Origin: Candidatus Methanoperedens sp.
GTDB taxonomy: Archaea; Halobacteriota; Methanosarcinia; Methanosarcinales; Methanoperedenaceae
Length of the DNA: 32,000 bases
Direction of reading: 5' to 3'
NCBI GenBank assembly: GCA_041494705.1
Contig: JBGQBI010000001.1
Coordinates: 1 to 32,000, forward strand
Shown: piece by piece, positions 4,171 through 19,712 of the stretch
Position numbering within the stretch: the first letter of the stretch is position 1
Layout of the letters: each line of letters starts with the position of its first letter
Notes under the pieces: generated by a model
Databases searched by the model: none
What the model saw: the letters and a program-made list of their open reading frames with translations, nothing else
What the model was told of the DNA's origin: nothing
Position numbers and translations under genes: made by a program

Positions 4171-4297
4171 TGATATTCTCCAGACTTATTTGTGGACTTG
4201 ATAATATAATACTTATCAGTTATGTTTGTTCTGGTTTAAAAAATAAGAAAAATCTCGAATTGAATCTTAATTTTTGAAAATATACGGAATATTTTCT

Positions 4298-5101
4298 TTA
4301 CGCGATATCCTTTGTAGTATCTATCTGAACACCGTCTCCGACCTTGAACCTTATCATTTCAATCGACGGGACTCTTCCCCTTATTTTCGGTATTGAAAGC
4401 CGGTTAGAAATCTTTTCCGAATTTTTTTCAGAATCCACATCAAAAATCACGTCACAGGATTTTAATATTTCATTTTCAAGATTCTTTTCATGTGTATCCT
4501 TGAGGCCGTATAAAAAAGTCAGGCAATTAACGCTTTTTGTTGCCTCGTATATCAAATTGATGAGCCGTTTGATTGATCCCGGATTAACGTTCAGGTTCAG
4601 GTAGAAAGAGAACGAGTCAAAAATTATGTTTATATCCTGTTCTTCTTCAGCCACTATTTTTTTCAGGTTATATTCCGTGAATTCCACTATCTTGGCATCG
4701 ACGAATTCATTGCCAATATTATCAACCATATCTCCATGGGACGAGATATAATACTCACTGTATATATCCACAAATGTAATATCATCTGTTTTAAAACCAA
4801 AATTCTGGATATCATGCATTACATATACCGGGCGCCTTTCATTTGAAAAATAATAGCTTTTGCGGGCCTGCGTGAATTGGAATAAGAAAACTTCAGCCAT
4901 GGAAGTGGCATCGGCGTGTATATAGGCAACAGAACCCGATGGCAATCCGCCTCCGAGGGTACGGTCAAGAATAGATATGCCTGTGGTCCGGTTTTGTTTT
5001 TGGGGAACCCCATTCAAGATTGAAACTGCCAGCGGGCTAGTACTTTGGGAAGGTTTTTTATTGACAGTCCCTGCTAAAGATATTCTTTTTCCGTTTGCCA
5101 T
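4298..5101 (-). CDS. KaiC/RecA-superfamily ATPase-like protein with degenerate Walker A
   Basis: GISILDRTLGGGLPSGSVAYI matches the KaiC/RadA-type lead-in. ADATSMAE replaces the expected GxxGxGK[ST]. A Walker B-like IIFDSFS is retained. Confidence 0.7.
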   Translation of the reverse strand: MANGKRISLAGTVNKKPSQSTSPLAVSILNGVPQKQNRTTGISILDRTLGGGLPSGSVAYIHADATSMAEVFLFQFTQARKSYYFSNERRPVYVMHDIQNFGFKTDDITFVDIYSEYYISSHGDMVDNIGNEFVDAKIVEFTEYNLKKIVAEEEQDINIIFDSFSFYLNLNVNPGSIKRLINLIYEATKSVNCLTFLYGLKDTHEKNLENEILKSCDVIFDVDSEKNSEKISNRLSIPKIRGRVPSIEMIRFKVGDGVQIDTTKDIA

Positions 5102-5181
5102 TTTTTCCCTTTTTTTATAATAGAGTTATTTTTTTCTGGCTTAATATAGTTTACTAAAAATGCATGATAATAATGATGAGA

Positions 5182-6846
5182 TTAAAATAAGGTTTTAGGT
5201 TTTTGTGCTTTCTTCTTTACATTGCCGGATTTTTTCAAGGAACCCAAACACATTTCCATACCTTTAATCGCTATTTGGCTTTCAGGATTTAATTCAAATG
5301 CCATTTGATAACTTTTAAGGGCCTCTCTGATATCCCCTTTTTTATAAAGCGCATTGCCTTTATTATTTAGAAATACATAGTCGTCCGGGTCGATTCCCAG
5401 CGCTTTATCATAGCAGATTATTGCCTCATCGATTTTTCCTGATTTTGCAAAAGCAAGACCTTTATTGTTCCAGGCGATGGTATTTTCGGAATCTATCAGA
5501 AGCGATTTATTGAACGAATCGATTGCATCTTCATATTTTTTCATGGAATACAACGCATTTCCGGTAACAAGGTGATCTAAAGCTTTTTTGGCTATTTCAT
5601 GACCAGGCGCAGGCTTTTTTTGTTGAGCTTTCGGCGCCGGTTTTTCTATCTTAATAATTTTTCTTTCAGGGGGAGGTTCGATAAATGCCTGTTCCTCGAT
5701 ACTCTTAACGGGAGCAGGTTCGGGTTTAATTGTTTTCGGTTCAGGTTGCTTAGTGATAGCTTGTTCAACAGGATGATGTTTGATTATTTTCTGCTCCTTG
5801 AAACTCTCAACAGGAGCGGGTTCAGGAATTATGGCAACTGGCTCCGCTTCAGGCTGTGGCAGCTCAATAACCGGCTGTTCAACGACTTGCGGTTCTATAA
5901 ATGCCTGTTCTTTGATGGTTTCAGCAGGATGTTCAGGCATCTTGGTAACGGTTTCTGGCTCTGGTTCAGGTTGCGGAGGCTTAATAACTGGCTGTTCAAC
6001 GACTTGCGGTTCGATAAATTCCTGTTCTTTGATGGTTTCAGGAGGAGCAGGCTTTTCAACTACTGCCTCTTGCATCGGTTCAGGCTTCGGAGGCGTAATG
6101 ACCGGTTGCTCAATAAACGGTGGTTCGATGGCAGGAGCCGCCTCCTCTTCTTTCGGTATGGATGAAGCAATCTTTTGTAAATCGATTGTTTCAGCGTTCT
6201 GCTTCATTTTTGCAAGAGCGAGCCCTTTATTGCTCCATATCTTCTCAACTTTCGGGTTTATTTCAAGAGCCTTATCATAGGATTCTATAGCCTGGGCGAA
6301 CCGGTTAAGTTTTACAAGAGTCAATCCCCTGTTATTCCATACTGTCTCGTCCCCGGGATTGATTTCGATTGATTTGTCATACGCACGAAGCGCCTCTTGA
6401 AAATTGCCGCTCTCAAAATACACATCGCCCTTGCTGCACCATGCGGCAGCGTCAGTGGGATTTTTTTCAAGCAATTTATCATAACAGGCAATGGCCTCAG
6501 GCAGCCGCCCGAGCTGGGCAAGCGCAATGCCTTTATTATACATCACTTCTTCGTCATCAGGTTTGAGTTCAATGGCTTTATCATAACACTGTATGGCTTC
6601 TGAATATCTCCCGGTTCTTGCAAGTGCAAGCCCTTTATTATTCCAGACTTCGGTTAATTTTGGGTTTATCCCGAGGACTTTATCATAATACTTAATAGCC
6701 TCTGCATACATGCCGCTCTCAACCAGCTCATTGCCCTTATTGGCCAATACGCTCGCATCCGCGCCCCCAATGTCATTCATAGGCCCACCCGCATTTTCAC
6801 TTTCGGAAATGGGTTTCTTTCTCCTGAAAATCGTCTCAAATCCCAT
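5182..6846 (-). CDS. TPR-repeat protein with central Pro/Glu-rich repeat linker
   Basis: Multiple 34-aa TPR units (W.NKG.AL...G...EAI..YDKAL.I.P) at both ends. Central low-complexity P/E/Q/I-rich region. Confidence 0.9.
   Translation of the reverse strand: MGFETIFRRKKPISESENAGGPMNDIGGADASVLANKGNELVESGMYAEAIKYYDKVLGINPKLTEVWNNKGLALARTGRYSEAIQCYDKAIELKPDDEEVMYNKGIALAQLGRLPEAIACYDKLLEKNPTDAAAWCSKGDVYFESGNFQEALRAYDKSIEINPGDETVWNNRGLTLVKLNRFAQAIESYDKALEINPKVEKIWSNKGLALAKMKQNAETIDLQKIASSIPKEEEAAPAIEPPFIEQPVITPPKPEPMQEAVVEKPAPPETIKEQEFIEPQVVEQPVIKPPQPEPEPETVTKMPEHPAETIKEQAFIEPQVVEQPVIELPQPEAEPVAIIPEPAPVESFKEQKIIKHHPVEQAITKQPEPKTIKPEPAPVKSIEEQAFIEPPPERKIIKIEKPAPKAQQKKPAPGHEIAKKALDHLVTGNALYSMKKYEDAIDSFNKSLLIDSENTIAWNNKGLAFAKSGKIDEAIICYDKALGIDPDDYVFLNNKGNALYKKGDIREALKSYQMAFELNPESQIAIKGMEMCLGSLKKSGNVKKKAQKPKTLF
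5866..6046 (-). repeat. 117-nt (39-codon) tandem duplication inside the TPR gene
   Basis: AATAAC[CT]GGCTGTTCAACGACTTGCGGTTC.ATAAAT.CCTGTTCTTTGATGGTTTCAG occurs at 5866 and again at 5983. Protein-level unit is ETIKEQ.FIEPQVVEQPVI..PQPE. Confidence 0.85.
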
Positions 6847-6911
6847 ATCTCAATACCATTAAATATAATGAGCCAATTAATATTGCTTATCCTATTTAAT
6901 GTTTATTTATT

Positions 6912-6994
6912 GTTGAGAACCTGATTTTCCAAAATATTCTTGTGAATACTTTGCTTACCTGGCGCCTTTTGCGGTGTGCGATTTTATTCACCGC
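6912..6994. repeat. Dispersed intergenic repeat, copy 2, plus attached hairpin
   Basis: 6912-6968 matches 989-1046. It is followed by a 6-bp stem GCGGTG/CACCGC (6971-6994). Confidence 0.7.
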
Positions 6995-7173
6995 AGAGCG
7001 CGAAGGTCGAAAGTTAGTTTTAACTCGTAGGGTCAAGGGGTAGAGAAGTCCCCTTCTGAGAGGTAGGGGATGAATCGTACCCCTTGGGATATGCGATTTG
7101 ATAAAAGCCGAAAACACTTTCACCATGCTTACATAAAAACCATATCTATACAGATATAATCCAGATAAATACT

Positions 7174-8445
7174 ATGCGACTAACTGAAAAAATCAGGATA
7201 TACCCAACACCTGAACAGGAAGAAGTATTATGGCATCTATCAGAGCAATGCAGGCTAATATACAATTTTGCTCTTGCAGAACGAAGAAAAGAATGGATAC
7301 TCAATAACTTTCGAGCCGATTTTGAAGTATTCCCTTGGGGAAAACCATACTATGAAGTTGGATACAAGAAACAGCAAAACGATTTGCCGAAAATAAAAGA
7401 AAAGTATCCGAAATATAATGTTGTATATTCAAAAGTATTGCAGATGGCTATCCGAACCCTCAATGCTGATTACAGTTCATTTTTTGAGCAAAGAAAAAAA
7501 GGTGATACCAATGCACATTCACCTGGATTCAAAGGCAAAAACCATTTCACTACAATGATGTATAATCAATCCGGGTTCACAATCAAAGGATCAGAAATAT
7601 CGTTATCCCATTTTTATAATGAAGTGCCTCTTGTATTTGAATTATTGCGAAAATACAATAAAGTCTATCAAGTAAATGTCTATCAGGTTGAAGGAAAATA
7701 TTATCTTGGGATTGTTCATGAAGTTCCGGAAAAACCTTATGTCGATAACGGATTGTATCAGGCAATTGACCTTGGAGTCACAAAAACCATAACCGCTATA
7801 AACACAGAATCAAAATTCTATGAAGCTGTAAACCCAAGACCGGACAAATACTGGAATCCGAAAGTCGATGAACTTCAAGCAAGACGAGACCATTGTATCA
7901 AAGGAAGCAATCACTGGCAGAGACTCAATCGAGCAAAGAATAAACTTACTCGGAAATGTAGTAACCAGATAAAAGACATTCAGCATAAACTCACACGGAA
8001 AATGGTTGACAATACTAAAGCCAATACAATCATTGTCGGTGACCTTGATGTCAAGGAAATGGCTCAATCCAAAAATACAAAAATAACAAAGAAAGCTAAA
8101 AAGAGTCTCAACCGATCAACTCAAAATAATGGATATTTATCTCAGTTTGTTGGATTTCTAACCTACAAGGCAGCACTTATAGGTAAGAAAGTAATAGAAA
8201 TCGATGAGCAATACACTTCTAAGAAATGTTATGTTTGCGGAAAGAAACACGACATGCCTATCTGGAAGCGTACTATGGAATGTGATTGTGGGAATGTAAT
8301 TGATAGAGATAGGAACAGTGCTATCTTTATCATGTTACGATTTCTATCAAAAAATGCCATGTGGACTGGCTACCAACAATTTGTTGGTAATCTACGACAA
8401 ACAGGGCTTATGGTGCCTAAACAAGCACCAGAAGCATACTCGTAG
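7174..8445 (+). CDS. tnpB: TnpB (OrfB) RNA-guided endonuclease / IS605-family accessory protein
   Basis: 423 aa. RuvC triad candidates AIDLGV, IEIDEQYTSKKC and IDRDRNSA. Zinc finger CYVCG...CDCG. N-terminal HTH-like region. Confidence 0.92.
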   Translation: MRLTEKIRIYPTPEQEEVLWHLSEQCRLIYNFALAERRKEWILNNFRADFEVFPWGKPYYEVGYKKQQNDLPKIKEKYPKYNVVYSKVLQMAIRTLNADYSSFFEQRKKGDTNAHSPGFKGKNHFTTMMYNQSGFTIKGSEISLSHFYNEVPLVFELLRKYNKVYQVNVYQVEGKYYLGIVHEVPEKPYVDNGLYQAIDLGVTKTITAINTESKFYEAVNPRPDKYWNPKVDELQARRDHCIKGSNHWQRLNRAKNKLTRKCSNQIKDIQHKLTRKMVDNTKANTIIVGDLDVKEMAQSKNTKITKKAKKSLNRSTQNNGYLSQFVGFLTYKAALIGKKVIEIDEQYTSKKCYVCGKKHDMPIWKRTMECDCGNVIDRDRNSAIFIMLRFLSKNAMWTGYQQFVGNLRQTGLMVPKQAPEAYS

Positions 8446-9648: not shown

Positions 9649-12600
9649 TCATACCGGGCACACAGGTGCCGGACATCCTCCTGCATATTCATCATCAGCG
9701 GATACAAATTGATCAACCCTGTCACCAAGATATAACACCTGCTGCGCCTTGCTCCCGTACCTGTAAACTGTAATTCCCTTGCATTTTAATTCATAGGCGA
9801 GCATGAACGCCTTTTCAACTTCCTTGATATCCACATCATTCGGGAAATTGATGGTCTTAGATACTGCGTTATCCGTATATTTCTGGAAAGCCGCCTGCAT
9901 CCTGACATGCCACTCTGGCGCTATATCAAAAGCAGTCACAAACACGCGCTTCACATCATCGGGCACTTCTTCAATTCCAGCGAGAGTTCCCTGCTTCGCG
10001 ATTTTCATCATCATCTCCTCGCTGTAGAAACCCCGCTCTTTCGCCACAGCTTCAAAATACGGGTTTATTTCAAGGAGTTTAGTCCCTTCCATGACATTGC
10101 GCACGAAAGAAACCGCAAACAGTGGCTCAATACCGCTTGAACAGCCTGCGATAATGCTGATAGTTCCTGTGGGAGCAACAGTTGTCACGGTGGAATTGCG
10201 TATTGGTTTCTTATACATGCTTCCCGGGAAATTCGGGAAAGCGCCCCGCTCAATCGCAAGTCTTTCTGAAGCTGCATGGGATTTTTCCTGGATGAATTTC
10301 ATAATCTCTTCGCCTGTTTTGAGGGCGTCTTCAGAATCGTACGGGATACCGAGCTGCACGAGCATATCTGCAAAACCCATTATCCCAAGACCGATTTTCC
10401 TGTTAGCTTTTGTAATTTCCTCAATCTGGGGAAGCGGGTATTTGTTGATATCTATTACATTGTCAAGGAACTTGACTGCATTGTTTATGATTTTTTCAAG
10501 GTTTTCCCAGTCGATTTTGCCATCCTTCACTATTTTCGCAAGGTTTATCGAACCAAGGTTGCAGGATTCGTAGGGTAAAAGCGGCTGCTCTCCGCAATCA
10601 AGCGACACGATTCCATTTGAAATGAAGCTCAAGGTTCTCGGCTCTGTTAAATCATATACAAGTTCCTTTCCATTTTCTTTTATATATTTTATTTTCTCTA
10701 CAAATTTGTCAGAATAAAATCCTTTTGTGAAAAATTTTCCGATTTTATCTTTATGCAGCCCGCACAGGAATCCGATGTCTCCTATAAATTTCATCACACT
10801 TTCTTTGCTGATTTCAAGCTCGAAACACACACCGCTTGAACCATATTTTCTCAGCTCCCCGCTCTTGTTGAGATAGCTGAACTTATTTTCTTCGGGTTGC
10901 CGGCTTCTGTCGTATATCCTTGATTTTATCCCTAAATTTAGCAGAAGTATTTGAACGTCTTTCAGCAGTCTCAGGGATTTTGAAGTCAGTCTTACGTATG
11001 ATGATTTATCCTTAATAAAATTAACAGTTCCATCAGCCGTGAACAGACCCTGCAAAAAACCGATAACAGCCTCTTTCGGCGCAATTAAAATACTTTCAGG
11101 GACTGTTTTGTTTCCACCATCCACAGCCCGAATGCCCAGCTTGATGAAAAAGTCCACGAAATGTTTTGAGTGGTATGATAAGTGATATACTCCATTCTCC
11201 CTTTTCACTTCTTTTATGTCAGAGCCATACCAGTAATTAATAATAGGTTTGAAATAGTCCATCACATTTTTATCTTGTTTTGAGAATGTGAACCCCACCC
11301 TTCGGTTTTTATCCCCGTCCCTGAGCCAGCCATCGCCAACCAGCCAGCCCAATACCTGACCCAATTCTTTGCTCCAATCAGATGGCAGGTTTAATCGGGT
11401 GATTTTTCCATTTTTCCCAACAAATTCATTTCCCGCATCGAATGGCAATTTGAAGTCATCGCTGAATCTCCCTTCACCGGATTGAATCGATATTCTGTGA
11501 ATCGTTGGATCCAAATCTATTGTTTTAACCCAGCCTTCAGGGGTCAGGATTTTATGGTCAGCAGTGCAGGTCAGTTCATATCCGGACTCTGTCTCTATTT
11601 TGTACGTCTCTTTTTCTCCAACACAAAAAGCCTTTATTATCTTATTGAAGCCAATCCCGGTTTGCTTTGAGCGCATCAAACTTATTGTCCCGCCGCTATT
11701 CACAATCCGGATTGGAACCTTGTTATCCGTGGCAATTCTGATTCCACCATCGGGGTGTTTTTCAATCAGGTCGCTCATTCTCATTAAGCCGTTTTCTGTC
11801 GAAATAAGCGTACTTCCGACAACGCACGGGTTTGTGCTTTCCATTTCCCCTACCTGCGGCGTGGGATTGTGCCTGTTAATCTCATCTATGAACACAACCC
11901 CCGGGTCGCCTGTCCTCCACGCCATTGTTATTATGAGGTTCCAGATATCTTTGGCCCTGACCTTCTTCACTATTTCCCTGTTCCGCGGGTTTATTAACCC
12001 GTATTCACCATCTTCCCTGACGGCTTTCATGAACTTATCATCCACCGCTACCGAGATATTGAAATTCGTAAGAAAACCCTCCTTTGTTTTTGCGGTGATG
12101 AATTCAATGATATCAGGGTGGTCTGCCCTTAGAATCCCCATATTGGCGCCGCGCCGCTTTCCTCCCTGCTTTATGATATCCGTGGTGGTGTCGAACACCC
12201 TCATGAAAGAAACCGGTCCTGATGCAACCCCTTTTGTAGATTTTACAATATCTCCCGAAGGCCGGAGGCGCGAAAATGAAAAACCCGTGCCGCCGCCTGA
12301 TTGCTGGATGAGCGCCATGCTTTTTACCGCATCAAAAATGCTCACAAGCGAGTCCTCGACAGGAATGACAAAACAGGCCGAAAGCTGTCCCAGGTCTGTA
12401 CCCGCGTTCATGAGTGTGGGCGTATTGGGCAGGAATTCAAGGTTTACCAGCATGTTGAGGAATTCATCCTCGGATTCGGGGTCAAGCGCCACGGCTTTTG
12501 CTATGCGCCGCAAAAGCCGAAGAGGTGTCTCAATCACCTTCCCGTCCTCATCTTTTAACAGGTAGCGCCTCTTGAGGACTCTTGCGGCATTAACACTCAA

Positions 12601-12921
12601 CTTCAGTTCATCCTTTACTCCGAGAAATTCCTTGGCTTTCCGTATCTGTGAGCGCTTTTCCCTGTACAGGATGTATGCTTTCGCAACGCCGGCATAGCCG
12701 TTTTTAATCAAAACCTCTTCGACCGTATCCTGGACATCTTCAACATCAGGGATTCCCGTGATTCTTTTTTCAAGAAGCTCAACTACCTGCTTTGCTATTC
12801 CCTCTGCCCTTTTGCCATCCCTGCTTTTTGTGGCGATAAATGCCTTAAAAACTGCATTGGCTATCTTTGAGCTGTCAAAATCTACAATTCTTCCGTCCCT
12901 TTTTTTGATTTTCTCAATCAT
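9649..12921 (-). CDS. nrdJ: Adenosylcobalamin-dependent (class II) ribonucleotide reductase with N-terminal ATP-cone and one in-frame intein
   Basis: ATP-cone IKKRDGRIVDFDSSKI. The catalytic motif STNP|C...|CGEQPLLPYESCNLGSINL is split by a 410-aa insert. C-terminal Cys tail CPAPVCPV. Confidence 0.95.
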   Translation of the reverse strand: MIEKIKKRDGRIVDFDSSKIANAVFKAFIATKSRDGKRAEGIAKQVVELLEKRITGIPDVEDVQDTVEEVLIKNGYAGVAKAYILYREKRSQIRKAKEFLGVKDELKLSVNAARVLKRRYLLKDEDGKVIETPLRLLRRIAKAVALDPESEDEFLNMLVNLEFLPNTPTLMNAGTDLGQLSACFVIPVEDSLVSIFDAVKSMALIQQSGGGTGFSFSRLRPSGDIVKSTKGVASGPVSFMRVFDTTTDIIKQGGKRRGANMGILRADHPDIIEFITAKTKEGFLTNFNISVAVDDKFMKAVREDGEYGLINPRNREIVKKVRAKDIWNLIITMAWRTGDPGVVFIDEINRHNPTPQVGEMESTNPCVVGSTLISTENGLMRMSDLIEKHPDGGIRIATDNKVPIRIVNSGGTISLMRSKQTGIGFNKIIKAFCVGEKETYKIETESGYELTCTADHKILTPEGWVKTIDLDPTIHRISIQSGEGRFSDDFKLPFDAGNEFVGKNGKITRLNLPSDWSKELGQVLGWLVGDGWLRDGDKNRRVGFTFSKQDKNVMDYFKPIINYWYGSDIKEVKRENGVYHLSYHSKHFVDFFIKLGIRAVDGGNKTVPESILIAPKEAVIGFLQGLFTADGTVNFIKDKSSYVRLTSKSLRLLKDVQILLLNLGIKSRIYDRSRQPEENKFSYLNKSGELRKYGSSGVCFELEISKESVMKFIGDIGFLCGLHKDKIGKFFTKGFYSDKFVEKIKYIKENGKELVYDLTEPRTLSFISNGIVSLDCGEQPLLPYESCNLGSINLAKIVKDGKIDWENLEKIINNAVKFLDNVIDINKYPLPQIEEITKANRKIGLGIMGFADMLVQLGIPYDSEDALKTGEEIMKFIQEKSHAASERLAIERGAFPNFPGSMYKKPIRNSTVTTVAPTGTISIIAGCSSGIEPLFAVSFVRNVMEGTKLLEINPYFEAVAKERGFYSEEMMMKIAKQGTLAGIEEVPDDVKRVFVTAFDIAPEWHVRMQAAFQKYTDNAVSKTINFPNDVDIKEVEKAFMLAYELKCKGITVYRYGSKAQQVLYLGDRVDQFVSADDEYAGGCPAPVCPV
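10597..11826 (-). mobile_element. Intein (residues 366-775) with LAGLIDADG homing endonuclease domain
   Basis: Block A CVVGSTLI, block B TCTADHKILT, LAGLIDADG motifs LGWLVGDGWL and GFLQGLFTADGTV. Block F/G is VYDLTE...FISNGIVSLD followed by the +1 Cys of NPCGEQ. Confidence 0.85.
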
Positions 12922-13063
12922 TTTTAACCCCTTGTTCTGGACACTATAATATATTAGAAGTGGTTGTTAAATAACTTAAACCTTGAGGCTTTTTGAGTGT
13001 TATGCAGGGTTTCTTGATACCTGTGAAAAATATTATAAAATTGTAAACATTAAATTTTTGGCG

Positions 13064-13158
13064 CAACAGCCGGATGAAGGAACACGGATTACACGGATGC
13101 GACGGATACGCACGGATTTTCATTGATTCCCTTCCATCTATTATCCCATACTTCTCCC
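13064..13158. repeat. CACGGAT-iteron element, copy A1
   Basis: CAACAGCCGGATGAAGGAACACGGATTACACGGATGCGACGGATACGCACGGATTTTCATTGAT...CCCATAC. Four [CG]ACGGAT units at 9-10 nt spacing. Matches 14259-14352. Confidence 0.75.
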
Positions 13159-13168
13159 CAAACTACAT

Positions 13169-13585
13169 TTAGTATTTTATAAGATACTGAGCTATGTATT
13201 TACTAAATTGTTCAATATCTCCAATATTATTCTGCAAGTAATAATAGAGCTTTCCGATGTCTATTTTTGCGTACATGTGGACGAGCCTATTTCTAAATCC
13301 TGCAGATGGTGCAAATTTTACAGCAAAATCACCCGGCAAAATACCATGCTCTCCAAGAACCAAAAACACTTCCTGGTATGTTTCAGGTCGTTTAAGTTTT
13401 TCTCTTGATATTATCATTTCACCAATGTCGATGGTACATTCCAGTGCAATCTCTAAATATCGCTCGACTGCTCCCTTAAGTGTGTGGTCTGTCTGTAAGT
13501 CCTCTATTTTAAAATGTTGATAGCCTTTTAATATGCTCACATATTCTTCAAGCTGTTCAAGTTTGGATGCTATTTCATCATTCAC
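13169..13585 (-). CDS. hepT: HepT (DUF86/HEPN) toxin of a type VII MNT-HepT toxin-antitoxin pair
   Basis: 138 aa. R-x4-H-x-Y motif in FRNRLVHMY. Overlaps the upstream MNT gene by 4 nt. Confidence 0.85.
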   Translation of the reverse strand: MNDEIASKLEQLEEYVSILKGYQHFKIEDLQTDHTLKGAVERYLEIALECTIDIGEMIISREKLKRPETYQEVFLVLGEHGILPGDFAVKFAPSAGFRNRLVHMYAKIDIGKLYYYLQNNIGDIEQFSKYIAQYLIKY

Positions 13586-14052
13586 GAGAAACCGACCCCG
13601 GCAATCCTTTTCAGAGTTTCTTCCGTATGCCTCTTTATGTAATATTTTTCATCCATATACATAGAAAGGAGCTTTGTTTCGAACTTTACTCTCTCTATTT
13701 CACTGGATTTTAAAATAATTCCATTTTTTATAATATTATATGCCAGAAGCAAAGGCGCTTCATTTAAAACGATCAAATCTATTTTGTTTTTCTTGATTAA
13801 AGCGGCTATTTCACCCATCAATTTTAATTCCAGATCGAAGCGGTCTTTTTTGGATAATTTTTCATCGAGCAGGACTCCAATATCAACATCGCTCAACCTG
13901 CCTGTATCGCCCCTGACTGTTGAGCCAAAAAGATAAGCAAGTATTATGCTGTCTTTGCTGCTGAAGTATTCTGTTAGTTCCTTTTCATATGGTATCATGA
14001 ATACTCTGTAATTTGTTTTTGCTAATATATGTTCTTCGCTCATGTGCAGCAT
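13582..14052 (-). CDS. mntA: MNT-family nucleotidyltransferase antitoxin
   Basis: LFGSTVRGDTGRLSDVDIGVL (GS...DxD polymerase-beta-type NTase motif). The true start may be the internal M of MIPYEKEL. Confidence 0.85.
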   Translation of the reverse strand: MLHMSEEHILAKTNYRVFMIPYEKELTEYFSSKDSIILAYLFGSTVRGDTGRLSDVDIGVLLDEKLSKKDRFDLELKLMGEIAALIKKNKIDLIVLNEAPLLLAYNIIKNGIILKSSEIERVKFETKLLSMYMDEKYYIKRHTEETLKRIAGVGFS

Positions 14053-14119
14053 CTTTCAGGCGGCAGCATAACAGGCGCAGGTATCGGTGGGGTTTGTATT
14101 GGGTTATAATTTTAAATCA

Positions 14120-14243
14120 TGGCGCCGGCAGGTCCCCGGAGCGGCGGACTGCTCTGAAAGCATGCAGGCTTGCGAAAAGGAGGGAGAGAGGCTTCCGCAG
14201 TCTATTGATAGATAGGGGTATGTGTTCTTAATCGGGTTGCGCT
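14120..14243. repeat. About 120-nt repeat B, copy 1
   Basis: TGGCGCCGGCAGG...AGCGGCGGA.TGCTCTGAAAGC.TGCAGGCTTGCGAAAAGGAGG.AGAGAGGCTTCCGCAGTCTAT...GGGGTATGTGT...AATC.GGTTGCGCT matches 15495-15610. The two copies differ by a 6-nt indel and a few substitutions. Confidence 0.8.
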
Positions 14244-14258
14244 GGTTAGTTAAACAGT

Positions 14259-14352
14259 CAACAGCCGGGTGACGGAACACGGATGACACGGATTCGACGG
14301 ATACGCACGGATTTTCATTGATATTTTTTCTATCTATTAACCCCATACCTCC
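14259..14352. repeat. CACGGAT-iteron element, copy A2, inserted between repeats B1 and C1
   Basis: CAACAGCCGGGTGACGGAACACGGATGACACGGATTCGACGGATACGCACGGATTTTCATTGAT...CCCCATAC. The segment 14244 to about 14377 is absent from the otherwise collinear copy at 15495-15700. Confidence 0.75.
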
Positions 14353-14377
14353 GCAATCTTCTCCTTTATCTTCCCCT

Positions 14378-14470
14378 AAAAAAGCTCGATCAGTTTCTTA
14401 TTTGCATCGACCAATTTCTGCTCCTATTCGATTCGGGCAACGATTTCCGCTCCCCGGGGAGGGGGCGGGA
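14378..14470 (-). pseudogene. Decayed 3' fragment resembling the conserved region of a type I R-M specificity subunit (hsdS-like), copy C1
   Basis: Minus-strand translation is VIPPPPRGAEIVARIE*EQKLVDANKKLIELF*. This resembles the HsdS conserved motif (PLPPLEEQ..IV..IE.E..LV...K.LIE.FE) but has an in-frame stop. Confidence 0.5.
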
Positions 14471-14514
14471 TAACATATCGAAATACAGAGGCACGGTGGC
14501 GGTGCTTACGCTGA

Positions 14515-14844
14515 TCACGCCTCTACCTTCTGCTTGACTATCTTGAGTCTGATGCCTCCTGGCTCGGTTTCGATGGGCAGCTTAAAGTTCGAATTAAGGT
14601 GATAGAGATCTGCAATCACTTTTGGAAGTCGTATAGATATGCTATTGCCCGATTTATATACAGTCGCCTCCACACCTTTCTTCAGTGCTTTGAAGTATTT
14701 GACGATGTTATCCACATCTTGAGGGTCGCTGTGTTCATTACCGCATTCGCACCGCCAGCCATGTATAATAAACCCTTTCAGGTTAATATCTTCCACTGTA
14801 TTCATTTCTTTTCCACAGATATTGCATTTATGCATCTTTTTCAC
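14515..14844 (-). CDS. Zinc-ribbon + AbrB/SpoVT-like domain protein, putative antitoxin
   Basis: 109 aa. CNICG...CECG zinc ribbon followed by SISIRLPKVIADLYHL (swapped-hairpin-like). Overlaps the upstream ORF by 17 nt. Confidence 0.6.
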   Translation of the reverse strand: MKKMHKCNICGKEMNTVEDINLKGFIIHGWRCECGNEHSDPQDVDNIVKYFKALKKGVEATVYKSGNSISIRLPKVIADLYHLNSNFKLPIETEPGGIRLKIVKQKVEA

Positions 14845-15115
14845 CTCGCATTAATTTCAATTTTTCTTTAGTAGCTCTAATTTTTCCGACGTGTCTTATA
14901 AGCCAATAATCATCATAGTCCTCGATCGCCACGATGTAGATAATCTGTCCGCGGTGGCACCACTTTTCGATTATACCTTTTTTCCTTTTGGATACTTCTT
15001 TACCGTTTTCAAGTAATTCTATTATCTGATGTATTTCAATTCCGAGTTCTATCATTTCGCCATCGGCATTTCTGTTATGGTCAGGAATTAATGGCTTATT
15101 TTTCCATGTTATCAA
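14828..15115 (-). CDS. Small putative toxin (DUF4258-like pattern)
   Basis: 95 aa. MIELGIEIHQIIELLENGKEV...IYIVAIEDYDDYWLIRHV resembles the DUF4258 layout (ER.IS..EV.E.L.NG ... V.V......IITV). Assignment is by eye only. Confidence 0.45.
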   Translation of the reverse strand: MITWKNKPLIPDHNRNADGEMIELGIEIHQIIELLENGKEVSKRKKGIIEKWCHRGQIIYIVAIEDYDDYWLIRHVGKIRATKEKLKLMRGEKDA

Positions 15116-15134
15116 GCCATATCAACCTCATAAT

Positions 15135-15164
15135 GTATAAACATATTTCACCATATGTATATAC
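15135..15164. promoter_or_regulatory. 12-bp inverted repeat (1 mismatch) upstream of the toxin-antitoxin pair; candidate operator overlapping an AT-rich promoter
   Basis: GTATAAACATAT (15135-15146), a 6-nt spacer, then ATATGTATATAC (15153-15164). Lies 20-50 nt upstream of the start at 15115. Confidence 0.4.
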
Positions 15165-15380
15165 TTTTTTGTTATCCAAAGAGGCATGGAAGCGCAGAGA
15201 CATTCTTTTTATCGAATTCTTATATAAAAATTGCGGCGCATGCTATCCCCATGCAACCAATATCTATCAAAATACCGCGCTGCTGTCCTTCTCTTCTTTC
15301 CCGCAGGTGTGACAGCAGGAAAGGGGCGGGGTTATGAGCATGGTCGTTTGGTTTAAGAAATAGTATTCATCCAGACGAAA

Positions 15381-15420
15381 GGAACACGGATGACGCGGAT
15401 TGGACGGATACGCACGGATT
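15381..15420. repeat. CACGGAT-iteron element, copy A3 (shorter, diverged flanks)
   Basis: GGAACACGGATGACGCGGATTGGACGGATACGCACGGATT. Confidence 0.7.
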
Positions 15421-15494
15421 TTTTTATTAGCCGTGAAAATCCGATATAAGAGAGAGAGCACTAATAATTTTATATAATAATGGCAATTAAAATG

Positions 15495-15610
15495 TGGCGC
15501 CGGCAGGAGCGGCGGATTGCTCTGAAAGCTTGCAGGCTTGCGAAAAGGAGGAAGAGAGGCTTCCGCAGTCTATTTATGATGGGGGTATGTGTTTTTAATC
15601 AGGTTGCGCT
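15495..15610. repeat. About 120-nt repeat B, copy 2
   Basis: Collinear with 14120-14243. Confidence 0.8.
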
Positions 15611-15700
15611 CGAAAAGCTCGATCAGTTTCTTGCATGTCTCGATACAATTTCTGTTCCTCTTTAATTCGGGCAACGATTTGCTTTTTGATATCATGGAGT
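15611..15700 (-). pseudogene. Decayed hsdS-like 3' fragment, copy C2, immediately downstream of the 202-aa gene
   Basis: Minus-strand translation is LPLHDIKKQIVARIKEEQKL. After a frameshift it continues CIETCKKLIELFERNLIKNTYP. The DNA is collinear with 14378-14450. Confidence 0.5.
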
Positions 15701-15706
15701 GGGAGA

Positions 15707-16315
15707 TCATGGCAGTAAGTTAAATAACCCAGTAAATTGTTCACCAGATAAAATTAACACGTTCTTTGTTCTAAAAGTGGGTTTATCCACCCTTTCCAGA
15801 AACAAAGAGTATTTTAAAAGTTTCACAAATATTTTCAATACTCGTTCAGATTTGGCAACTATTACACCAAAACGCCCCATGGCAGAAGTATTTATTATGT
15901 CAGCTAAAACGACCTTGCGATCTGCTCTTCCTTCTATCTCAACCGCCATGAAGCATCTTGCATTTGTATTCGTAAACTCTCGATTGAAGAAATCATCAAA
16001 CCTTGGCAATTCTTCTTCTCGGTTACTATACCGTTCTAAGTTTTCAATGTGAGCATTTAACGCGAATCGTAATAATCTCCGTACATCTCTATTGGCTAAT
16101 AACTCATCATATTCTAGAATACATTGGGTTTCTATTGCAAAAGGACCTATTGCAATATCTATCATTGGGGAAGATATAAATTGATCGTGCCATCTATTGA
16201 ATGGTAACCATTCTTTTCTTATTTCAACATCTCTACCTCTAATTGTAGTTGGAAATTTTCTTGCAAATTCCCGAACACCCATATTTTGGAGTCTTATTGT
16301 TTCTGCGTTTGGCAT
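15707..16315 (-). CDS. Hypothetical protein, possible PD-(D/E)xK (BamHI/BglII-like) nuclease fold
   Basis: 202-aa ORF in the AT-rich block. SPMIDIAIGPF (D53) and CFMAVEIEGRADRKVVLADIINTSAMGRFGVIV (E126, E128, K134) fit a D...ExE...K pattern. Confidence 0.6.
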   Translation of the reverse strand: MPNAETIRLQNMGVREFARKFPTTIRGRDVEIRKEWLPFNRWHDQFISSPMIDIAIGPFAIETQCILEYDELLANRDVRRLLRFALNAHIENLERYSNREEELPRFDDFFNREFTNTNARCFMAVEIEGRADRKVVLADIINTSAMGRFGVIVAKSERVLKIFVKLLKYSLFLERVDKPTFRTKNVLILSGEQFTGLFNLLP

Positions 16316-16408
16316 TTTAAGTCCTTTTTGATTCTTTTTAATTAGTCCAATATTTCATTTTTAATGGTAATTTGTTCTATGAATTTTTCTATATAATTTT
16401 ATTTAAAA

Positions 16409-18832
16409 TTATTTATTCCATTCATAAATTTTATTACCACATCCGCATCTTATCTTTTTGCAAACTTCATCATAGTATTTTAGAGAAATGAATTTCTGAC
16501 AAGAACCGCAAAAAAATAAATCATCCAAATCTTTTACATCTTTCCAAAACGCTTTGAAATCATTGATGCTTGCAACAAATGTACTGTCGTGAGAATCTTT
16601 ATTGCCTAAAAATACGGACTTTAAAAGCCTGTCCAGTATTGCGCTATTCTTCAACACCAAACTTGGCTGTTTATTGATTTTATTTTTAAGTTCAGTTAAA
16701 AGTTCATAAGCCATTCTATCTTCATTTGTATCATTATAGACAAACTTAACCTTAACTTCTAAATTAAATGCAATGTCTTTGAGTCTATGCTCAAGATATT
16801 TTCTACAATCATTACCTAATCCTGTTTCGTCATTTGTTTTAATCTTATGCTCTATTCTTTCTTTTAAAGTCTCAAAAGGTTCATCAATGTAGGTTCCTCT
16901 ATCTTCACTCCATTTTATAGTGTTAACTTTCCAGTTTTTCCCCTTCACTAGGTTTTTAACAATATCAAACCAATTTTTTTCGTGAGTTAATAAAATAATT
17001 TGATAATCAGAAAATTTTTCAACTAATAGATCAGCAAAGCGTTTTCTATGGCTTGTGTCCAGACTTGATATCACATCATCAAGAATAAAGAATTTATTCT
17101 TTTTATTAAATGCTTTAACAGAGGTAAGAAAGAAAGCTATTCCGAAACAATTGAGGTGGGATTCGCTTAAATATTTATGAGGCGGTGAAACCTCATTTTC
17201 AAAAAACTTAAATTGGAATGTTATACCTGCTAAATCATCATCTTTTTCAAGAGGAATTAATTTTATATCCTCAACTTTTTCATCTGGATGCATAAATTGA
17301 TATAGACTATTAATATCCTTCGAAAAGATAGAAAGGAAAGATTCCAAACCCTCTTTTTGTTTTTTTGCAAACTCACTATATACTAATTCTAATGATTTTA
17401 TTTGATTATCTAATATTTTTCTTTCTTTTGTTAACTTCTTAATTTCAAAATATGCATTTCTTGATAATACTATCTTACTATGAATATCAAATTTAAGATT
17501 ATCCTTTTTGTTCGTCTTTAATTGCTCGTTCTTTTCTTTACAGAAATCAACTATTTGTTTAAAGAGTTCTTTATCAATTATGAATTCATTTGCTATTTTA
17601 AGCTTTTGAATCTCAGAAATTTCAATATCTGATTCAGCTAAATAATTTTCAAAGCAAATATTTAACTTTCTAATTTTTATTTTTAATTCTTTATTATCTG
17701 CTAATTCAAAGTGCTTATCTGATAATAAAGGTTTAATTAACTGGTTGGAATCATTAAGTACTCTTTGTAAAGATTTTTTTAAGTCAATCAACCTTAATTT
17801 TTCTTTTTTGTATTTTTCTAATTCAATGATTCTAAGTTCTAATTCCTTTAATAACTCCTTTTTATTTTTGGGCTGCAAACACAGCGGACAATTGTTATCT
17901 GTAATAATATTCCGTTTTAAAACATCTACACCTACAGATAATAGTGTTTCTAATTCGATTTTATTTATTTTTTCAATATCAGTAATTATTTTTTGAAATT
18001 GGTCATAATATTTTTTATAAGATTCTTCTATTTCACCAAGCCTGTTGGATAAATTAGAAATAAGATCATTTACGTTGCTATAAAATGATTGAATTGCCAC
18101 TATTCTAGAATCATCAGGTTCTTTGATTAATGTTAAAATACTATCTATATCATCGATTTTTGTTAATTCTTTATCAATACCTAAAAGTTTTATCAGTTTG
18201 TTTATAGAATCAATAAATTGCTCATCAGATGTTATATTGTGCCCGATATGCTCTATAATATGAGCTTGTTGGGCATTAATCTGGTTATCAAACTTTTGTA
18301 ATTTGAGTTCCTTTTTTAGTTCATTAGTAATTTTTCTTAATATATCTCTAGTGCCTGTGACCTCTGAAAACCCAATAATATTAGAAAGCTCGATTAATTT
18401 CTCGGATTTCGGGGCTAAAATAAAATTCATTAAATCTTCATAGCGTAAAATGATATTTTCGTTTTTGGAAGCCTTTAGAAAATCAACGAATTCATTTGAA
18501 TTATTTGAATATTCAGAAGTATAGGAGCCTTTTTTTAAATAGATGCATTTATACGAATTAAATTCTTTGTCTGTAAATTCAATGTTAATAAAAGCTTTTT
18601 CATCATCACCTAAAAAGAAATTTCTTAAAGCAGCTATACCCCCCCGCCCGATTTCTTCACTTGCCAAGTGTTCTATTCTGTCATAATAAAACCACTCAAA
18701 TGCATCTGAAATACTGCTCTTACCAGTGGCATTATCACCATAAAGCAAAACAGATTTTTCATCTATATTTAGTGATAAATTTGATTTAATTCCTCTAAGG
18801 CCATTTATATTAAAACTTTTAATTTTTGCCAT
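16409..18832 (-). CDS. Rad50/RloC-like ABC ATPase with coiled-coil zinc hook, C-terminal HEPN-type (R-x4-H) domain and terminal zinc ribbon
   Basis: Walker A GDNATGKSS (aa 32-40). About 400 aa of K/E/L/I-rich coiled coil with NCPLCLQ (C315/C318) at mid-point. Signature LSESHLNCF, Walker B FFILDDV, H-loop LLTHE, RKYLEH (aa 677-682), CGSC...CGCG (aa 775-798). Confidence 0.85.
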   Translation of the reverse strand: MAKIKSFNINGLRGIKSNLSLNIDEKSVLLYGDNATGKSSISDAFEWFYYDRIEHLASEEIGRGGIAALRNFFLGDDEKAFINIEFTDKEFNSYKCIYLKKGSYTSEYSNNSNEFVDFLKASKNENIILRYEDLMNFILAPKSEKLIELSNIIGFSEVTGTRDILRKITNELKKELKLQKFDNQINAQQAHIIEHIGHNITSDEQFIDSINKLIKLLGIDKELTKIDDIDSILTLIKEPDDSRIVAIQSFYSNVNDLISNLSNRLGEIEESYKKYYDQFQKIITDIEKINKIELETLLSVGVDVLKRNIITDNNCPLCLQPKNKKELLKELELRIIELEKYKKEKLRLIDLKKSLQRVLNDSNQLIKPLLSDKHFELADNKELKIKIRKLNICFENYLAESDIEISEIQKLKIANEFIIDKELFKQIVDFCKEKNEQLKTNKKDNLKFDIHSKIVLSRNAYFEIKKLTKERKILDNQIKSLELVYSEFAKKQKEGLESFLSIFSKDINSLYQFMHPDEKVEDIKLIPLEKDDDLAGITFQFKFFENEVSPPHKYLSESHLNCFGIAFFLTSVKAFNKKNKFFILDDVISSLDTSHRKRFADLLVEKFSDYQIILLTHEKNWFDIVKNLVKGKNWKVNTIKWSEDRGTYIDEPFETLKERIEHKIKTNDETGLGNDCRKYLEHRLKDIAFNLEVKVKFVYNDTNEDRMAYELLTELKNKINKQPSLVLKNSAILDRLLKSVFLGNKDSHDSTFVASINDFKAFWKDVKDLDDLFFCGSCQKFISLKYYDEVCKKIRCGCGNKIYEWNK

Positions 18833-19154
18833 TTATCGCTTCTTCTCTAAGCTCTATTAATGCATTAAAAATTTGTTTTTCGTTAAATTTATTATTCTGA
18901 TATAGTCCTATTAAAGCATCTGCAATCTTCGGATCAATTCCGGAAATTTCTTTTAAACCATCAAAAAATTCGTCTAATATCTCCTTACCACTCTTAATTG
19001 TGTTACTCATTTTTCGTCTCCCTTTTTTCAAAATAACTCCATCTATTTTAAAGTTAATATCCAATTCATTTTGTAAAATCTCAAATTCTGTTTTATTGTT
19101 ACAGCTTGGATATTCACCATAATTTCTTACCACCTTTTTAATATTAAATCCCAT
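18819..19154 (-). CDS. Small hypothetical protein, first gene of the AT-rich cluster
   Basis: 111-aa ORF overlapping the ATPase start by 14 nt. An alternative start is M49 (19010), preceded by GGGAGA, giving 63 aa. No recognisable motif. Confidence 0.5.
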   Translation of the reverse strand: MGFNIKKVVRNYGEYPSCNNKTEFEILQNELDINFKIDGVILKKGRRKMSNTIKSGKEILDEFFDGLKEISGIDPKIADALIGLYQNNKFNEKQIFNALIELREEAINGKN

Positions 19155-19445
19155 GAGCCCTGATATTGCTCAGCTCAGATGATTATAATACTCATATAAG
19201 TATAAATATTCTTTCTTTTTATCTTTTTTACCACTCTACTTACATAAAAATCACATAAAACCCGCCATCCCTTTTGCTTCACCTCTCGCTCTCAAACAGC
19301 GACTTCATCCTAAGTTCAAGCCCCTCCCTCAAATACACCGCACAAACCTCACCCACCCACAACCTCCACTTCACTCCTCCCCAAAAAATCCTTATCAAAA
19401 GTCGCTATCTTCCTTCTCCTTACCTTATCGCTCGTCTCATCTCAA

Positions 19446-19712
19446 TCATTTAACAAAAAGCCCGCATTTGCATGAACCTTTTTTTCGTATGTCAAGAGTC
19501 CTGTGGATACAGGGACAAATTAAATCCCTGTCTTTTTCAGGGTTACCTGTAACCTGGCGGCAGCCGCAATACTGTACTCCGTATTCTCTTTTATTCCGGG
19601 CAAGACCTTTTATTGCCTGAACAACCAAATCATAATCAGGATTAAGTTTCAAGCCGTTTTTTTCTGCGTAGTCCTTTGCCCATTCGAAAATCTGGCCTTC
19701 AATATCATCCAT
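19446..19712 (-). CDS. Ferredoxin:thioredoxin reductase catalytic-subunit-like protein (FTRc/FDR family)
   Basis: Three CxC pairs, YCGCR...LICPCI...SCKCGLF, mirroring the CPC...CPC...CHC of FTR. Start trimmed to ATG at 19712, one nt after the flavodoxin stop. Confidence 0.8.
   Translation of the reverse strand: MDDIEGQIFEWAKDYAEKNGLKLNPDYDLVVQAIKGLARNKREYGVQYCGCRQVTGNPEKDRDLICPCIHRTLDIRKKGSCKCGLFVK

Follow-up and report, generated by a model that had tools for sequence, protein, structure and literature searches.

A defence gene hotspot at the FTRc–nrdJ junction of a Candidatus Methanoperedens genome

The window analyzed here comprises 32,000 nucleotides of DNA from Candidatus Methanoperedens sp. 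(assembly GCA_041494705.1, contig JBGQBI010000001.1, positions 1 to 32,000), and the subject of this study is an island of ~6.5 kb at positions 12922-19445 that lies between FTRc, a gene of a Fe-S/redox operon, and nrdJ. Read along the minus strand, the gene order is NifS, NifU-PNR, flavodoxin, FTRc, the island, nrdJ, NTPase, and TnpB, with the FTRc stop codon at 19446 and the nrdJ start codon at 12921. The island holds the toxin–antitoxin (TA) pair MntA-HepT, the two small genes p95 and p109, an AT-rich block with a remnant of a gene that we call A and the genes B and C, and the gene p202 downstream of C; repeats and further gene remnants lie among them (Table 1). The listed genes are on the minus strand at the coordinates given by a first-pass annotation, which had been made from the sequence alone, and all modules have the same orientation, as it had stated. 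Altogether, our results support a model whereby the island is a hypervariable defence and TA hotspot containing three independent modules, one of which is derived from an operon with the gene order A-B-C and has lost A; we regard this model as highly probable.

The FTRc–nrdJ junction in Methanoperedens genomes

We mapped the proteins of the window onto 24 Methanoperedens loci. Two of these, L006 and L014, have an FTRc stop codon that overlaps the start codon of nrdJ (ATGA; GTTAAATGATTGAG..., within …GTTAAATGATTGAGAAAATC…), an arrangement that we refer to as the empty site, and at five others (L002, L003, L004, L005, and L007) the corresponding interval is occupied by 2.1-7.0 kb of other DNA. 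This insert is located 3' of FTRc in L003-L005; no match to FTRc was found in L002 or L007. The cargo differs from locus to locus and comprises a complete type II restriction–modification (R-M) system in L007 (REase_II 1e-114, MTase_II 1e-54); the PADLOC candidate PDC-S54 (1e-149) and VapBC in L003; a CARF-like protein, a kinase together with an ORC/CDC6-like ATPase (CARF_STK_AAA 4e-21), a DNA methylase, and two PIN genes in L004; three AT-rich genes, one of them for an ATPase, and VapBC in L005; and an unknown protein of 339 amino acids (aa), p95/p109, and a PIN toxin in L002, which is the only locus to have a module in common with the window island. Thus, the island is real, and the site has the properties of a hotspot in that the island is absent from relatives and its place is taken elsewhere by differing, defence-rich cargo. 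The first-pass annotation had proposed an accessory island between nrdJ and the Fe-S/redox operon and had named, as the observation that would speak against it, the same gene set at the same place with native composition in related genomes. No such locus was found among the related genomes; nrdJ and FTRc are adjacent where the island is absent, and because related genomes have other gene sets at the site, the island reading stands, with its overall interpretation supported and several of its details corrected below.

The G+C (GC) content of the island is 0.341 overall versus 0.444 outside it. Most of this anomaly comes from 16409-19154, with GC 0.27 and z = 6-10.6 for the tetranucleotide distance, whereas z is below 1 for windows wholly inside 12500-16000. 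A composition profile, as suggested at first pass, thus singles out the AT-rich block as alien but does not mark the whole 6.5 kb as foreign, and we take the heterogeneity to mean that the island is a mosaic of older or native-like and very recent material. By its composition, the B-C block is evidently of foreign, horizontal origin. The coding strand of 19155-19350 (minus), 3' of FTRc, is strongly G-rich, has no open reading frame (ORF), and is also present in L003 and L005; the GC skew on the plus strand is -0.59 in 19001-19500.

We conclude that the locus represents a known kind of object, the chromosomal defence hotspot, here well documented for an anaerobic methanotrophic (ANME)-2d archaeon; a literature search found no description of a defence hotspot in Methanoperedens. 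Similarly to the defence hotspots of E. coli and Pseudomonas (PMC10121019, PMC12629846) and to the prr and Campylobacter rlo loci, it has a fixed site between core genes, strain-specific cargo of R-M, TA, and abortive-infection genes, gene remnants, and a heterogeneous composition. Unlike these bacterial loci, it belongs to an archaeal methanotroph, separates two genes whose translation is coupled, lacks mobility genes, and has internal scaffolds made of hsdS tails that recur between cassettes. Although well mapped in model bacteria, defence hotspots have scarcely been charted in uncultured archaea like Methanoperedens, in which viruses, plasmids, and Borgs shape the genomes of the methane cycle. 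The locus provides a clean and datable example, with an empty site, six fillings, a founding duplication, and 3' stubs that record successive overwrites.

The ends of the island retain traces of its founding. The direct repeat GTTAAA(AA)TGATTGAG, present at both ends, is a duplication of 14-16 bp of the ancestral FTRc-stop/nrdJ-start junction and is likewise found in L003 and L005; recombination between the two copies could restore the empty site precisely. Window positions 12600-13064, which cover the 5' end of nrdJ and ~135 nt upstream of it, are 91-92% identical in L002-L005 and partly conserved in L007, and the stretch upstream of nrdJ is missing from empty sites. Translation of nrdJ is coupled to the redox operon where the site is empty, and the nrdJ-proximal end of the island, with its TATA-like stretch, may serve as a replacement nrdJ promoter. 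We suggest that the founding insertion duplicated the 14-16 bp of the FTRc/nrdJ junction and gave nrdJ an upstream region of its own.

Such an insertion, exactly at a gene boundary and with the junction repeat at both ends, could also be the work of a single mobile element (an integrative element, a transposon, or a casposon-like element) that integrated with a 14-16 bp target duplication, carried the defence genes as cargo, and has since decayed. Several genes of the island are indeed decayed and a TnpB gene is located 4.5 kb away. Nevertheless, we consider this explanation unlikely. None of the six island variants contains an integrase, Cas1, polymerase, or transposase gene; no terminal inverted repeat was seen by eye; and there is no tRNA gene in the window and hence no tRNA integration target. 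Only the B-C block is alien in composition and, therefore, the cargo arrived in several steps. Moreover, the genomes have the ends in common and not the middle, so that a mobile element would explain the founding event and not the present diversity.

Table 1 Features of the island and its ends in the window
Feature	Position	Strand	Details
Direct-repeat copy, nrdJ end	12913..12928	-	GTTAAAAATGATTGAG; contains the nrdJ ATG at 12921-12919
nrdJ-proximal island end	12929..13063	-	AT-rich TATA-like stretch taatatattata, about 12947-12958
D1 copy 1	13064..13127	+	
HepT RNase toxin (type VII TA)	13169..13585	-	NCBIfam HepT_toxin 3.3e-34; Pfam HepT-like 5e-32; R-x4-H is RNRLVH
MntA nucleotidyltransferase antitoxin	13582..14052	-	NCBIfam MntA_antitoxin 2.3e-26; Pfam Polbeta 1e-21; 4-nt overlap with hepT
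Scaffold part A, copy 1	14112..14243	-	92% identity over 106 nt to 15506-15610
D1 copy 2	14259..14322	+	Inside an insertion of ~127 nt that splits scaffold copy 1 (spacing 1367 to 1233)
hsdS 3'-tail remnant, copy 1	14380..14510	-	Two in-frame stops; translation 'IPPPPRGAEIVARIE*EQKLVDANKKLIELF*GKIKEKIAEVWG' (…AEIVARIE*…)
p109, putative antitoxin, Zn-ribbon and AbrB/SpoVT-like	14515..14844	-	CxxC...CxC; TIGR02609 doc_partner 1e-4, sub-threshold
p95, putative toxin, weakly DUF4258-like	14828..15115	-	Pfam DUF4258 E 0.013, below cut-off
D1 copy 3	15366..15429	+	
Scaffold part A, copy 2	15487..15610	-	
hsdS 3'-tail remnant, copy 2	15600..15744	-	Frameshifted; 'LPLHDIKKQIVARIKEEQKL...KKLIELFERN'; overlaps the end of p202
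p202	15707..16315	-	No family match; archaeal add-on 3' of C
C (p807)	16409..18832	-	ABC/SMC-type ATPase aa 1-~635; HEPN-like aa ~650-773; Cys4 Zn-ribbon C775, C778, C796, C798
B, 63-aa conserved partner	18819..19010	-	14-nt overlap with C; HHH_5 only E 0.07
Gene A 3' remnant, ~43 codons	19038..19166	-	tblastn to residues 104-146 of intact A
PIN/VapC toxin 3' remnant	19364..19414	-	tblastn to intact PIN of L004: 65% over 17 aa, E 4e-4
Direct-repeat copy, FTRc end	19441..19454	-	GTTAAATGATTGAG; contains the FTRc stop and three orphan nrdJ codons

Cassettes, repeats and gene remnants

The MNT-HepT pair recognized in the first reading of the island passes both NCBIfam equivalog models (NF047751 117 bits, NF047752 92 bits, cut-off 60 each). 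With its canonical gene order, the 4-nt overlap, and the R-x4-H motif, it is an ordinary member of the type VII MntA-HepT TA systems, in which nucleotidylylation catalyzed by MntA holds the HepT RNase inactive. The proposed pair of a Zn-ribbon/AbrB protein and a DUF4258-like protein is likewise present as p109 and p95, weak though its family matches are, and recurs in L002 with 94% nucleotide identity and 99% amino acid identity of p95, p109 being truncated there. That p95 and p109 form a TA pair is plausible but unproven.

Two kinds of block lie between the modules. The first is the duplicated segment of ~200 nt reported at first pass, for which we find 14112-14243 together with 14371-14446 to match 15487-15680 at 78-94% identity across the matching blocks. 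It consists of the C-terminal tail of hsdS and ~125 nt of non-coding sequence 3' of this tail ("part A" of the scaffold, not to be confused with gene A). The two hsdS-like remnants were recognized by eye from their translations, which read like HsdS C-terminal tails with stops and a frameshift, the pieces being too short for hidden Markov models; neither hsdM nor hsdR nor an integrase gene is among the neighbouring genes in the window. Pieces homologous to part A occur in the islands of L002, L004, and L005, and scaffold pieces recur between different cassettes in L002-L005 and nowhere else in the window.

The second kind of block is D1, a repeat of 64 nt with four ACGGAT units 9-10 nt apart, of which the window contains three copies, all within the island, where none is expected by chance. 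The three copies had been described as iteron-like. The number is correct and the label is not: ten more occurrences of the D1 core are spread over other Methanoperedens loci, several being away from this site and with unrelated flanks, which rules out an island-specific iteron and makes D1 a dispersed repeat of the genus. A viral or Borg derivation of D1 was also considered and rejected, as the core has no exact match in IMG/VR, and no Rfam family was found for D1 or for any other part of the island at E up to 1. D1-type repeats are also located 3' of NifU-PNR, at distances of no more than ~300 nt in L016 (7003 and 7185) and of ~1.8 kb in L010 (13099), two more distant Methanoperedens genomes without flavodoxin, FTRc, and nrdJ at this position; these copies hint that D1 is associated with variable junctions.

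The layout is cassette-like, as had been noted, in that an hsdS-tail/scaffold block, D1, or both come after each module, and pieces of the same scaffold are found between different cassettes in L002-L005. The four gene remnants (PIN, GIY-YIG-like, and the two hsdS tails) are all 3' ends. The PIN stub, comprising the last ~17-25 codons, is located directly 3' of FTRc, the position that an intact PIN gene holds in L004. That all remnants are 3' ends suggests that the arrival of a cassette overwrites the 5' portion of the gene already resident there. Because blocks are shared among strains and no recombinase is present, we suggest that cassettes have been swapped among strains by homologous recombination on the core flanks, the scaffold pieces, and D1, and that each swap would leave 3' stubs of the overwritten genes, here those of PIN, the GIY-YIG-like gene, and the two hsdS genes. 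In this model, the present modules are MntA-HepT, the putative pair p95-p109, and a recently imported, very AT-rich derivative of A-B-C in which A was lost and p202 gained.

We give hardly any weight to an integron-like array, in which a site-specific recombinase would capture promoterless cassettes in one orientation at D1 and/or part A. No integrase gene is present in the window or in the related loci; no attC-like imperfect hairpin fold was seen in the scaffold blocks, part of which is hsdS coding debris; and the blocks number only two or three in each genome. The common orientation of the modules, each followed by a repeat block, the recurrence of these blocks between different cassettes in L002-L005, and the D1 copy inserted within a scaffold copy would agree with such an array, but the D1 core is also found away from the site with unrelated flanks. 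Homologous recombination among strains remains our preferred explanation for the exchange of cassettes.

The A-B-C operon and protein C

C, a protein of 807 aa, has 382 database matches at E ≤ 0.001, with 45-86% identity among the 120 listed, and the named sources span many bacterial phyla, including Caldithrix, Nitrospirae, Brocadia, and Patescibacteria. We examined the genomic context of C in Caldithrix abyssi, a metagenome-assembled genome (MAG) of Nitrospirae, and 80 metagenome loci. The bacterial operon is strictly collinear and consists of A (~150 aa), B (~62 aa, overlapping C), and C (~807 aa); among 83 other loci, this order was found in every one that has room upstream, except the archaeal L083, and B is directly upstream of C in every homologous locus. 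A has the motifs GLYFIF…YIGMSE…R…H with a conserved R65. It matches GIY_YIG_2 in 24 of 25 members and GIY-YIG in 14, all below cut-off with a best E of 0.0013, and essentially no other family apart from one stray weak MotCF match. In C. abyssi (L082, 9445-14334), the intact A-B-C operon is located directly upstream of a type III R-M system (N6_N4_Mtase/EcoP15I_C and ResIII), a setting in keeping with a defence island.

In the window, A is cut down to residues ~104-146 and its stop codon is lost; the stub is therefore read through into B, giving rise to a spurious ORF of 111 aa. Of the AT-rich three-gene ATPase cluster described at first pass, the AT-richness stands, whereas the 111-aa gene is a chimera of the A stub and B, and p202, a later and purely archaeal addition, does not belong to the ancestral unit. 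The nearest relative of the window copy is that in L083 (86% aa identity), which has Methanoperedens-like flanks with a GC content of 0.45. It has the same breakpoint in A and ~130 nt of upstream sequence in common with the window, and the truncation of A therefore predates the split of the two copies. Since this split, dN/dS (the ratio of nonsynonymous to synonymous divergence) has been 0.16 for C (dS 0.45) and 0.21 for B, which equals the value against L165, a locus that keeps an intact A. Selection therefore maintains B-C even without A. In L083, the A-less B-C module (2508-6821) adjoins an intein-containing PolC/DP2 gene. A gene at 6849-7481 of the same locus encodes a Zn-ribbon protein of 210 aa that matches VRR-NUC/PD-(D/E)xK weakly (E 0.008), a nuclease-like neighbour that is unlike p202.

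p202 has no Pfam, NCBIfam, or PADLOC match, and the database holds 13 relatives besides p202 itself, with D53, E126, E128, and K134 invariant. Its AlphaFold2 model (predicted local distance difference test (pLDDT) 89) has the order helix-strand-strand-(helical insert)-strand-helix-strand, and that p202 might be a PD-(D/E)xK-type nuclease is a guess. We rejected p202 as a part of the conserved ATPase system, as it is missing from 80+ homologous loci, among them all bacterial A-B-C loci. It is linked to C only in the close archaeal relatives L169/L170, in which it is 3' of the C homologue; here, nucleotide identity is 88% over window positions 15612-16531, and the homology ends exactly where scaffold part A begins. 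The second hsdS remnant travels with p202 in L169/L170, with homology reaching 15612.

The N-terminal part of C (aa 1-~635) is a Rad50/SMC/LmuB-type ABC ATPase. It matches Pfam SMC_N (1.5e-12) at both ends and the PADLOC LmuB model PDLC03859 (4.4e-20), aa 4-635 aligning to model positions 5-597 of 611, and a sequence and profile search of the PDB for a solved relative returned only generic heads of SMC, Rad50, and PtuA. The Walker A and B motifs are invariant, as is CPLC (315-318), the zinc-hook motif in the mid-region of the coiled coil, and two distant C homologues have weak zinc-finger or Rad50 zinc-hook matches in this region.

Residues 631-807 match no Pfam or NCBIfam family. An AlphaFold model of the C-terminal part based on 43 homologues (pLDDT 81.7) consists of a bundle of helices and, C-terminal to it, a small beta Zn-ribbon. 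In a Foldseek search of the PDB with this model, HEPN chains (2q00, 2hsb, 7bxo_G, 2jpu, and 4nqf) make up five of the six best matches, with 1ufb and 3o10 lower, at probabilities of up to 0.99 and target-normalized TM-scores of 0.46-0.63; the C-terminal domain does model as a HEPN bundle fold. R677, Y679, E681, K685, N700, N703, E704, R706, S747, H748, and D758 are invariant in this domain, and each of C775, C778, C796, and C798 is at least 90% conserved. Two HEPN R-x4-H motifs had been proposed for the island. The one in HepT (RNRLVH) holds, and the one in C (RKYLEH) does not: we found no conserved R-x4-6-H in C, position 682 being H, R, S, Y, N, G, or Q and H748 being preceded by [KR]-x-S, while the conserved residues are R677, E681, and S747-H748. 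A profile of the C-terminal domain recovers 433 clusters (50% identity), practically all at the C-terminus of proteins of ~800 aa.

This confinement to the ~800-aa architecture, the invariant polar residues in the pattern of RloC, the patchy, horizontally spread distribution across phyla together with the alien composition, the location beside type III R-M in Caldithrix and within a hotspot here, and the purifying selection that continues after loss of A all speak against C being a housekeeping Rad50/SbcC-type repair ATPase, or an inert pseudogene-to-be, with a non-catalytic helical bundle at its C-terminus. That idea draws on SMC and Rad50 heads as the best PDB sequence matches, on the weak E-values of the HEPN fold, and on the broken partner nuclease A, and we find it improbable. 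The B-C(-p202) block is best described as a degenerate member of an unnamed family, a variant similar to RloC and Lamassu.

Relation to known systems and neighbouring genes

RloC is defined by the motif Arg-X3-Glu-X36-52-His, often with Ser before the His, and by a CX2C hook; the protein of G. kaustophilus has 804 aa with R692/E696/H737 and the hook residue C291 (PMC2610378). Domains of the RloC/PrrC type are classed as HEPN domains fused to SbcC/Rad50-like ABC ATPases (PMC3710099). C resembles RloC in length (807 versus 804 aa), in an N-terminal ABC ATPase whose two parts flank a coiled coil with the CxxC zinc hook at its centre, in an alpha-helical C-terminal domain of the HEPN class with R-x3-E ... 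S-H, and in adjoining type I R-M (hsdS) debris, as did the rlo genes when first described. The likeness to prr/rlo loci drawn at first pass is thus stronger than was known at the time. In contrast to RloC, C has a Glu-His spacing outside the range of this motif and an additional C-terminal Cys4 Zn-ribbon, and while RloC is encoded by a single gene, C in bacteria is part of an obligate operon with the GIY-YIG-like A and the ~62-aa B. No description of a system combining GIY-YIG and RloC-like proteins was found in a literature search.

The other point of comparison is Lamassu (LmuA-LmuC-LmuB or DdmABC). A-B-C has the same order of nuclease effector, small protein, and zinc-hook SMC-like ATPase, and the alignment of the LmuB model to aa 4-635 of C recurs in C homologues with E-values of 3e-27 to 3e-32. 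LmuC, at about 200 aa, is far larger than B. Neither A nor B matches a PADLOC LmuA or LmuC model; A, only ~150 aa and GIY-YIG-like, has no LmuA-type effector architecture with an oligomerizing C-terminal domain, and a rule-based Lamassu call on A-B-C would fail. Unlike LmuB, C carries a HEPN-like domain and a Zn-ribbon of its own. In the Lamassu complex, a sensor of DNA ends, the small LmuC binds DNA close to the hook; GIY-YIG is not named among the effector types listed (bioRxiv 10.1101/2025.03.14.643221; PMC12663957).

On this basis, we suggest that C dimerizes via the CPLC zinc hook, to judge by its architecture, and that its ATPase heads together with B may sense aberrant, damaged, or foreign DNA, as RloC and LmuB/LmuC do. 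An ATP-dependent rearrangement would then activate the C-terminal HEPN RNase (R677/E681/H748), which would cut tRNA or mRNA, stop translation, and abort the infection. In complete systems, A would add DNA cleavage, and the archaeal version would be the RNase arm alone, unless p202 takes over. A-B-C would in this way join two known defence designs, DNA sensing of the Lamassu type and an RNase of the RloC type, and a natural variant that lacks the DNase A and is yet under selection suggests that the two arms may be experimentally separable. More tentatively, as a serious possibility that we hold with rather less than even confidence, A-B-C may be an unrecognized and widespread anti-phage or anti-plasmid system with a Lamassu-like sensor and DNase and RNase arms, of which the Methanoperedens copy works in an RNase-only or p202-swapped form, while, separately, the hsdS-tail/D1 scaffolds serve as recombination substrates that drive the turnover of cassettes.

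Several observations weigh against these interpretations of the locus and of C. There is no recombinase, transposase, or inverted terminal repeat to account for the founding insertion or for cassette exchange, and the family matches of p95/p109 are below cut-off. The Glu-His spacing in C is 66 residues versus the published 36-52. C has no match to the Pfam model AAA_13, which we take to cover PrrC and RloC, at E up to 1; for the 27 C homologues scanned, this model does not rank among the 25 most frequent families, and one of ten distant relatives matched it at 3.7e-5, below the cut-off. No solved Lamassu chain was matched by the C sequence, and the PADLOC check recommended at first pass yielded protein-level matches, such as LmuB for C, but no complete system. 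The Foldseek E-values of the HEPN matches (0.05-1.4) are individually weak though consistent across matches, and the GIY-YIG matches of A and the helix-hairpin-helix matches of B are sub-threshold, a profile from the A alignment (A5) finding nothing among PDB sequences. Fold searches of the PDB and BFVD with p202 gave scattered low-probability matches to nucleases but none that was significant, and p202 homologues other than those in L169/L170 stand alone in variable regions without B-C.

Around the island, the window encodes a P-type ATPase, KaiC-like and TPR proteins, TnpB, and metabolic genes, and the nearest relatives of the flanking NifU-type gene are all from Ca. Methanoperedens MAGs (85-99% aa identity). 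The TnpB gene (IS605 OrfB-type, with a Cas12f1-like TNB domain; 7174-8445, plus strand) lies beyond nrdJ, and no TnpA is near it. The nrdJ gene itself (9649-12921, minus strand, 1090 aa) contains an intein with a LAGLIDADG homing endonuclease (Pfam Intein_splicing, LAGLIDADG_3), whereas its orthologues in L002, L003, L006, and L014 have 680 aa and no intein; the intein is a second strain-specific selfish element, directly adjoining the island. Finally, the empty-site genome L006 has a gene for a 270-aa multihaem (CxxCH-rich) protein between NifU-PNR and flavodoxin (11641-12453), which makes this a second variable junction of the redox operon.

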